From NCBI RefSeq assembly GCF_022846255.1, contig NZ_AP025682.1: a DNA stretch of 64,000 bases; one strand, written 5' to 3'. The position numbers were made by a program, and so were the translations under genes. Below, piece by piece: positions 9,452-9,467 of the stretch. The notes beneath the pieces are model-generated. The model was not told where the DNA came from. It did no database searches and saw only the letters and a program-made list of their open reading frames with translations. The stretch comes from Escherichia coli (GTDB lineage Bacteria > Pseudomonadota > Gammaproteobacteria > Enterobacterales > Enterobacteriaceae). Position 1 is the first letter of the stretch. Every line of letters begins with the position of its first letter.

Positions 9452-9467
9452 AAAATTGTTAACAATT
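9452..9467. promoter_or_regulatory. perfect 16-bp palindrome AAATTGTTAACAATTT in the lpd promoter region (candidate operator, binder not assigned)
   Basis: Seen directly ~90 bp upstream of the lpd start codon. Confidence 0.3.

Follow-up and report, generated by a model that had tools for sequence, protein, structure and literature searches.

A perfect palindrome in the Escherichia coli lpd promoter is very probably the central part of the known ArcA-P operator

When oxygen is low, the sensor kinase ArcB phosphorylates ArcA. The phosphorylated regulator (ArcA-P) recognises TGTTAA-like direct repeats spaced by about 11 bp (Park et al. 2013), and its sites are found on either strand with no favoured orientation (Park et al.). 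For lpdA, an ArcA site is listed in Tables S1, S3, S4 and S6 of Park et al. 2013 (PLoS Genet 9:e1003839, PMC3798270), with ArcA ChIP-seq peaks at 127646 and 127683 of the K-12 chromosome, an 18-bp ArcA box (ttgtttaaaaattgttaa) of 21 bits that is among the top boxes of Table S3, and a site (TTGTTTAAAAATTGTTAACAATTTTGTAAAATA, MG1655 127679-127711) composed of three direct repeats of 9.4, 11.7 and 10.7 bits that extends from -38 to -6 relative to the transcription start. It was also shown there that lpdA is 6.1-fold up in an arcA mutant grown anaerobically (Tables S5/S6), and that sigma-70 occupancy at lpdA drops without oxygen. Park et al. credit the prior finding of ArcA DNA binding at lpdA to Cunningham et al. 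1998; the lpd ArcA operator is already known, having been published in 1998 and remapped genome-wide in 2013. Operators of the icdA type (Park et al. 2013; Park and Kiley 2014, PMC4173790) also consist of three TGTTAA-like direct repeats over a sigma-70 promoter, which is repressed by occlusion. Within the gene cluster of lpd itself, the PdhR box (AATTGGT-N3-ACCAATT) of the pdhR-aceEF-lpd promoter is likewise a palindromic operator, and its half-sites share 6 of 7 bases with those of the palindrome described below. The PhoP box (consensus TGTTTA-N5-TGTTTA) has the same 11-bp period and a near-identical hexamer, and belongs to a regulator of the same family as ArcA.

We examined the aceF-lpd gap in a 64-kb stretch of E. 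coli DNA (the window, i.e., the whole stretch analysed). A 261-base segment around the site matches several E. coli chromosomes at 100% identity, and in these it lies between the annotated aceF and lpdA genes. All genes of the pdhR-aceEF-lpd cluster are on the minus strand, with the end of aceF at 9568, and the intrinsic terminator that follows aceF (Table 1) sets the operon transcript apart from the lpd promoter. The stem of this terminator stands between an A-run and a T-run (AAAAGAGCCGGCC-CAAC-GGCCGGCTCTTTT), and the terminator scan also makes a call on the plus strand at 9536..9565; given this call and the flanking runs, the terminator could be bidirectional.

The gap contains a perfect palindrome of 18 bp, AAAATTGTTAACAATTTT, at 9452..9469, and there is no longer one in the window. 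An initial inspection of the letters alone (the sequence-only reading) had described it as a 16-bp palindrome at 9452-9467; the palindrome does exist, but it is 18 bp long and the 16-mer, AAATTGTTAACAATTT, which occurs a single time in the window, lies one base further right (9453..9468). Its near edge is 92 bp and its centre 100 bp from the ATG at 9360, close to the distance of about 90 bp upstream of lpd that had been given. The same reading had placed it inside an lpd-specific promoter, and this agrees with the promoter scan: the -35/-10 pair at 9445..9473 is the sole sigma-70-like promoter in the gap, and the palindrome fills its spacer (-31..-14 relative to the lpd transcription start).

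Table 1. Features of the lpd promoter region in window coordinates
Feature	Position	Strand	Score or basis
lpd (lipoamide dehydrogenase) coding sequence, 474 aa, product begins MSTEIKTQ, ATG at 9360	7936..9360	-	
Intrinsic terminator stem-loop after aceF	9536..9565	-	-23.9 kcal/mol, z = -5.3
lpd promoter -35 hexamer, TTTAAA	9468..9473	-	promoter scan
lpd promoter -10 hexamer, TAAAAT, 17-bp spacer	9445..9450	-	promoter scan; agrees with published start site
lpd transcription start (G)	9438	-	inferred by transfer of the published -38..-6 site position
33-bp ArcA-P operator TTGTTTAAAAATTGTTAACAATTTTGTAAAATA, three direct repeats, -38..-6	9444..9476	-	Park et al. 2013 Tables S4/S6 and coordinate mapping; MG1655 127679..127711
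ArcA direct repeat DR1, TTGTTTA	9470..9476	-	9.4 bits (Park et al.)
ArcA direct repeat DR2, TTGTTAA, strongest repeat, palindrome centre	9459..9465	-	11.7 bits
ArcA direct repeat DR3, TTGTAAA, overlaps the -10 hexamer	9447..9453	-	10.7 bits
Opposite-orientation ArcA-box reading ATTTTACAAAATTGTTAA, through the palindrome	9445..9462	+	20.1 bits, rank 2 in window; corresponds to the Enterobacterales-invariant block

The palindrome is unusual for its location and unremarkable at the scale of the window. When the 207-bp aceF-lpd spacer (41% G+C) was simulated with a Markov-1 model, palindromes of at least 16 bp appeared in 0.6% of runs and those of at least 18 bp in 0.2%, in line with the initial view that such a sequence is rare by chance in about 200 bp. 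For the whole 64 kb, 1.3 palindromes of at least 16 bp are expected, and 28% of the simulated windows have one of at least 18 bp, and the idea that the palindrome is improbable per se was accordingly kept for the local scale only. The runner-up perfect palindrome of the window, CCAAAGTTAACTTTGG (28851..28866), is likewise centred on GTTAAC and lies within a 221-aa open reading frame on the minus strand (28517..29182); given the expected number per window, it is probably due to chance.

Mapping of the published K-12 site onto the window leaves little doubt about the identity of the sequence. From the aceF terminator to about +19 the window does not differ from K-12, the 33-bp operator is base-for-base the same and occupies the same position over the lpd promoter, and the strain analysed here differs from K-12 only downstream, where the 5'UTR from the putative start is 78 nt long compared to 195 nt in K-12. 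The whole palindrome is contained in this operator, with the strongest repeat at its centre. The operator (9476..9444) extends over both promoter hexamers, the -35 at 9473..9468 and the -10 at 9450..9445, and over the spacer between them, i.e., the promoter overlap expected of a repressing site. The centre-to-centre spacing of the repeats is 11 bp between DR1 and DR2 and 12 bp between DR2 and DR3, so that the third repeat stands one base farther from the second than the 11 bp of icdA-type operators. A further difference from the icdA type is that the central lpdA repeat sits in a perfect palindrome, which creates an ArcA box on the opposite strand too; the DR2 7-mer TTGTTAA is also read on the plus strand at 9456..9462. 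The sequence-only reading had left the binder unassigned, and had given assignment to an already characterised site as grounds for refutation; such an assignment exists, as the sequence turns out to be the centre of the published lpdA ArcA-P operator (Park et al. 2013, citing Cunningham et al. 1998). We consider it very probable that the palindrome forms the middle of the ArcA-P operator at the lpd (lpdA) promoter.

A matrix scan points in the same direction. The ArcA matrix was derived from 113 published boxes, the lpdA and pdhR1 entries having been removed beforehand, and both strands of the 64 kb were scanned. The position 9476..9459 on the minus strand ranked first among all window positions on both strands, with 22.3 bits (training maximum 22.4, median 16.8), and the stretch 9476..9444 on the minus strand thus combines an ArcA-box score with at least two TGTTAA-like direct repeats about 11 bp apart. 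The matrix also finds ATGTTGCTTTTTTGTAAA and TAGTTTAATAATCGTTAA, at 5694..5711 and 14967..14984 on the minus strand, which are identical to the published acnB and pdhR1 ArcA boxes, respectively, bringing the known ArcA operators in the window to at least three. The recovery of the known acnB and pdhR boxes shows that the matrix performs as it should.

The expected consequence for lpd would be as follows. Under oxygen limitation, ArcA-P would occupy -38..-6, and the bound protein would exclude RNA polymerase from the lpd promoter, an occlusion that we propose here as Park et al. did. Occlusion would in turn be predicted to lower the lpd-only transcript, which would supply the E3 subunit to the 2-oxoglutarate dehydrogenase complex.

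Why an operator built from direct repeats should be palindromic at all deserves comment, since ArcA binds direct repeats and the ArcA model needs no perfect palindrome of 18-20 bp. The dyad symmetry is due to the CAA that comes after the strongest repeat, TTGTTAA: the resulting TTGTTAACAA gives TTGTTAA on either strand and has A/T runs on its flanks. High-scoring ArcA boxes result in both orientations. We infer that the symmetry probably reflects an overlap of ArcA half-sites rather than a second, dimeric protein that binds the palindrome.

Other binders that could use the same DNA were considered. The variant of a PdhR operator is suggested by the half-site AATTGTT, which is akin to AATTGGT and shares 6 of 7 bases with the PdhR box at 14808..14792, but the two halves would have a spacing of 0 instead of 3 bp, and a PdhR operator proper was rejected, as no sequence in 9361..9567 fits ATTGGT-N3-ACCAAT even with 3 mismatches allowed. 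As had been stated at the outset, the lpd palindrome differs from the PdhR box; it has neither the 3-bp spacer nor a consensus match. The PdhR box that had been placed at 14792-14808 is indeed there (AATTGGTAAGACCAATT, 14808..14792, minus strand). Furthermore, Cunningham et al. 1998 are cited (PMC10572922) as having seen no binding of PdhR to the E. coli lpd promoter, and the gel shift of the citing paper itself, in Plesiomonas, was also negative. We therefore give a variant PdhR operator almost no credence.

The perfect inverted repeat might also act as a hairpin or cruciform in RNA or DNA, e.g., in read-through pdhR-aceEF-lpd transcripts. Its predicted folding was too weak for this candidate to be kept: the RNA hairpin has -2.9 kcal/mol (z = -0.43), with 61 of 200 shuffles folding as well, and the DNA hairpin has -4.2 kcal/mol (z = -0.96). 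The repeat moreover lies between the strong aceF terminator and the lpd transcription start, and its pairing is unconserved outside one group of promoters (type A, see below) among the matches listed, so that a structural role has next to no chance of being the explanation.

Fis favours A/T-rich 15-mers with G and C at their ends, and GTTTAAAAATTGTTA at 9474..9460 fits GNNNAWWWWWTNNNC with one mismatch. The gene lpdA belongs to the Fis and CRP regulons besides the ArcA regulon, and is counted in the direct Fis regulon on the basis of regulon databases (PMC11253704); for neither Fis nor CRP did we find site coordinates at lpdA in the literature. The Fis motif is very degenerate, however, with an equally good match at 9367..9381, and the match in the operator misses the terminal C, one of the two bounding positions, which makes a Fis site at the palindrome a most unlikely reading. 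Another OmpR/PhoB-family regulator with a similar direct-repeat code could use the same repeats, PhoP being an example: TGTTTAAAAATTGTTAA fits the PhoP-box consensus with one mismatch. But among the matches listed the first lpd hexamer is TGTTTC in most of the Enterobacteriaceae, which raises the mismatches to two and sets the lpd sequence apart from the PhoP box. The match also shares its bases with ArcA DR1-DR2, whose in vivo occupancy and effect on expression are published, and no literature report of PhoP control of lpd was found; use of these repeats by PhoP or a relative is extremely unlikely. Both the Fis and the PhoP look-alikes coincide with the ArcA repeats. Scans of 9361..9567 with CRP, Fur, IHF, Cra, Lrp and CpxR consensus sequences gave no matches at the thresholds used; the set for CRP, Fur, IHF, Cra and Lrp includes TGTGA-N6-TCACA and GATAATGATWATCATTATC. 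For FNR (consensus TTGAT-N4-ATCAA), the best match, at 9466..9479, had 3 of the 10 specified bases mismatched and touches the palindrome at its edge only.

The region is conserved in related genomes, a comparison that the sequence-only reading had proposed. Of 5424 complete E. coli genomes, 5147 share an identical 71-bp promoter segment. For the cross-species comparison, the sample was anchored on the Lpd N-terminal coding sequence, with one genome per species, to avoid a bias toward palindromes; it comprised at least 120 Enterobacterales loci, and a recognisable orthologous promoter was present in 114 of 120 among the matches listed. All of these 114 promoters (among the matches listed) reach 10.4 bits or more for an ArcA box on one strand or the other, the reference being 12.8 bits for the 99th percentile of random 55-nt segments. 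An ArcA box is thus conserved in the orthologous promoters; its conserved orientation differs from the published one, and half of the box overlaps the -10, so that conservation of this antisense box is confounded with promoter function.

Among the matches listed, the promoters split into two types of 57 each. Type A is found in Escherichia, Salmonella, Klebsiella, Enterobacter, Citrobacter, Kluyvera, Buttiauxella, records labelled Rahnella and a few others, with the consensus CCGTTTGTTGTTTCAAAATTGTTAACAATTTTGTAAAAT (57 loci among the matches listed). Type B is found in Pantoea, Erwinia, Yersinia, Serratia, Photorhabdus, Edwardsiella and Hafnia; its consensus is GTTTGCAGTTTATTAACAATTCTGTAAACT and its palindrome is just 4-10 bp (57 loci among the matches listed), because the left arm varies. 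The long palindrome is confined to the Enterobacteriaceae-type group, type A, among the 114 promoters in the matches listed. Even there, a perfect palindrome of 20 bp (CAAAATTGTTAACAATTTTG) was present in 29 of the 57 listed matches and one of 18 bp in 6, the remaining 22 of the 57 having 10 bp or less. What is invariant in both types, in the 114 promoters among the matches listed, is the block TTAACAATT(C/T)TGTAAA(A/C)T, i.e., the right arm of the palindrome and the -10, and on the opposite strand this block gives an ArcA box. Conservation of the G in the sense-strand TGTTAA is poor in type B (commonly TATTAA), whereas the CAA after it is kept, which is the pattern expected of TTGTTAA on the other strand and the reverse of that for the sense-strand repeat. 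With the ArcA matrix derived from E. coli sites alone, the median scores were 20.4 bits (sense) and 16.5 bits (antisense) for the 57 type A loci among the matches listed, and 7.6 and 15.1 bits, respectively, for type B, where AGTTTACAGAATTGTTAA occurs in 52 of 57 among the matches listed. The type B promoters of the listed matches have thus lost the published sense-strand box, and yet the region stays invariant, a point that, like the invariance of the linker bases ATTC, weighs against the ArcA explanation.

These patterns bear on the possibility that the palindrome as such, CAAAATTGTTAACAATTTTG in most Enterobacteriaceae, is read by a second dimeric regulator on DNA also used by ArcA. The perfect 20-bp palindromes in 29 of 57 and the 18-bp ones in 6 of 57 Enterobacteriaceae-type promoters (among the matches listed) would suit such a protein, as would a dyad symmetry that ArcA does not require and linker bases that are invariant though superfluous for the ArcA matrix (the bases are ATTC, which the matrix does not demand). 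It is the symmetry, however, that fails to be conserved: the palindrome is broken in 22 of 57 Enterobacteriaceae-type loci among the matches listed, and in the other 57 promoters of the listed matches the left arm is free and the palindrome shrinks to 4-10 bp while the right arm and the -10 are invariant. None of the palindromic regulator consensus sequences tried gave a fit, and the region is already accounted for by the ArcA model, with the top score in the window. We regard a second regulator as very unlikely and, in its version with a 20-bp dyad, as less likely than an ArcA operator read in two orientations.

The two-orientation ArcA reading may be put more specifically, and at this level we offer it tentatively, as one possible account of the alignment. 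Two opposite, overlapping ArcA boxes would share the central TTGTTAA: an antisense box (sense-strand TTAACAATTnTGTAAAnT, covering the spacer and the -10) that would be ancestral and kept in all sampled Enterobacterales, and a sense box (TTGTTT[A/C]AAAATTGTTAA, reaching to the -35) that would be an Enterobacteriaceae-type addition making the operator longer and stronger. The distribution of the two boxes suggests, without proof, that the antisense box is the older one and that the type A lineage later gained the sense box that extends to the -35. This suggestion is tempered by the overlap of half the antisense box with the -10, by the ATTC linker, by a matrix taken from E. coli sites alone, by a comparison confined to the matches listed and by unexpected taxon labels among the type A records.

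As a discovery the palindrome carries little weight, since the lpd ArcA operator was published as early as 1998. Its use is that of a calibration case: a perfect palindrome in a promoter does not have to point to a dimeric regulator that binds palindromes, and in this instance it would stem from response-regulator half-sites, arranged as direct repeats, that are self-complementary by coincidence. The modest addition made here is that the ArcA-box orientation conserved across Enterobacterales is opposite to the annotated one, which bears on the evolution of OmpR/PhoB-family operators and on whether orientation matters in repression by occlusion.

Some further observations were made in the course of the comparison. 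In the 57 type B promoters among the matches listed, the 18-bp block TTAACAATTCTGTAAACT is invariant and its flanks are saturated with changes; the ATTC linker within this block is explained neither by the ArcA matrix nor by a standard -10 element. Several promoters do not go with their taxon label. The records of Rahnella (L012, L022, L053), Hafnia psychrotolerans (L109) and Erwinia oleae (L093) have an Enterobacteriaceae-type promoter, with the three Rahnella and the Hafnia psychrotolerans promoters identical to that of Buttiauxella, and Enterobacter cancerogenus M004 (L067) has a Pantoea-type promoter. Mislabelled assemblies, contamination or transfer could account for these mismatches.

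The lpd 5'UTR comes in two lengths, which differ in a segment of 30 nt in the window (ATAATGGGCGTCATAAAAAAAACGTCAGAC, 9391..9420, minus strand) versus 147 nt in K-12 (MG1655 127736..127882). The 147-nt segment of K-12 holds a dispersed repeat with a median of 5 and a maximum of 9 copies per genome, one that resembles the ERIC/IRU element. Among complete E. coli genomes, 3433 have the long form and 1991 the short one, O157:H7 being among the latter. The distance from the promoter to the ATG is also bimodal in Enterobacterales, at about 90-105 bp or about 215-240 bp among the matches listed.
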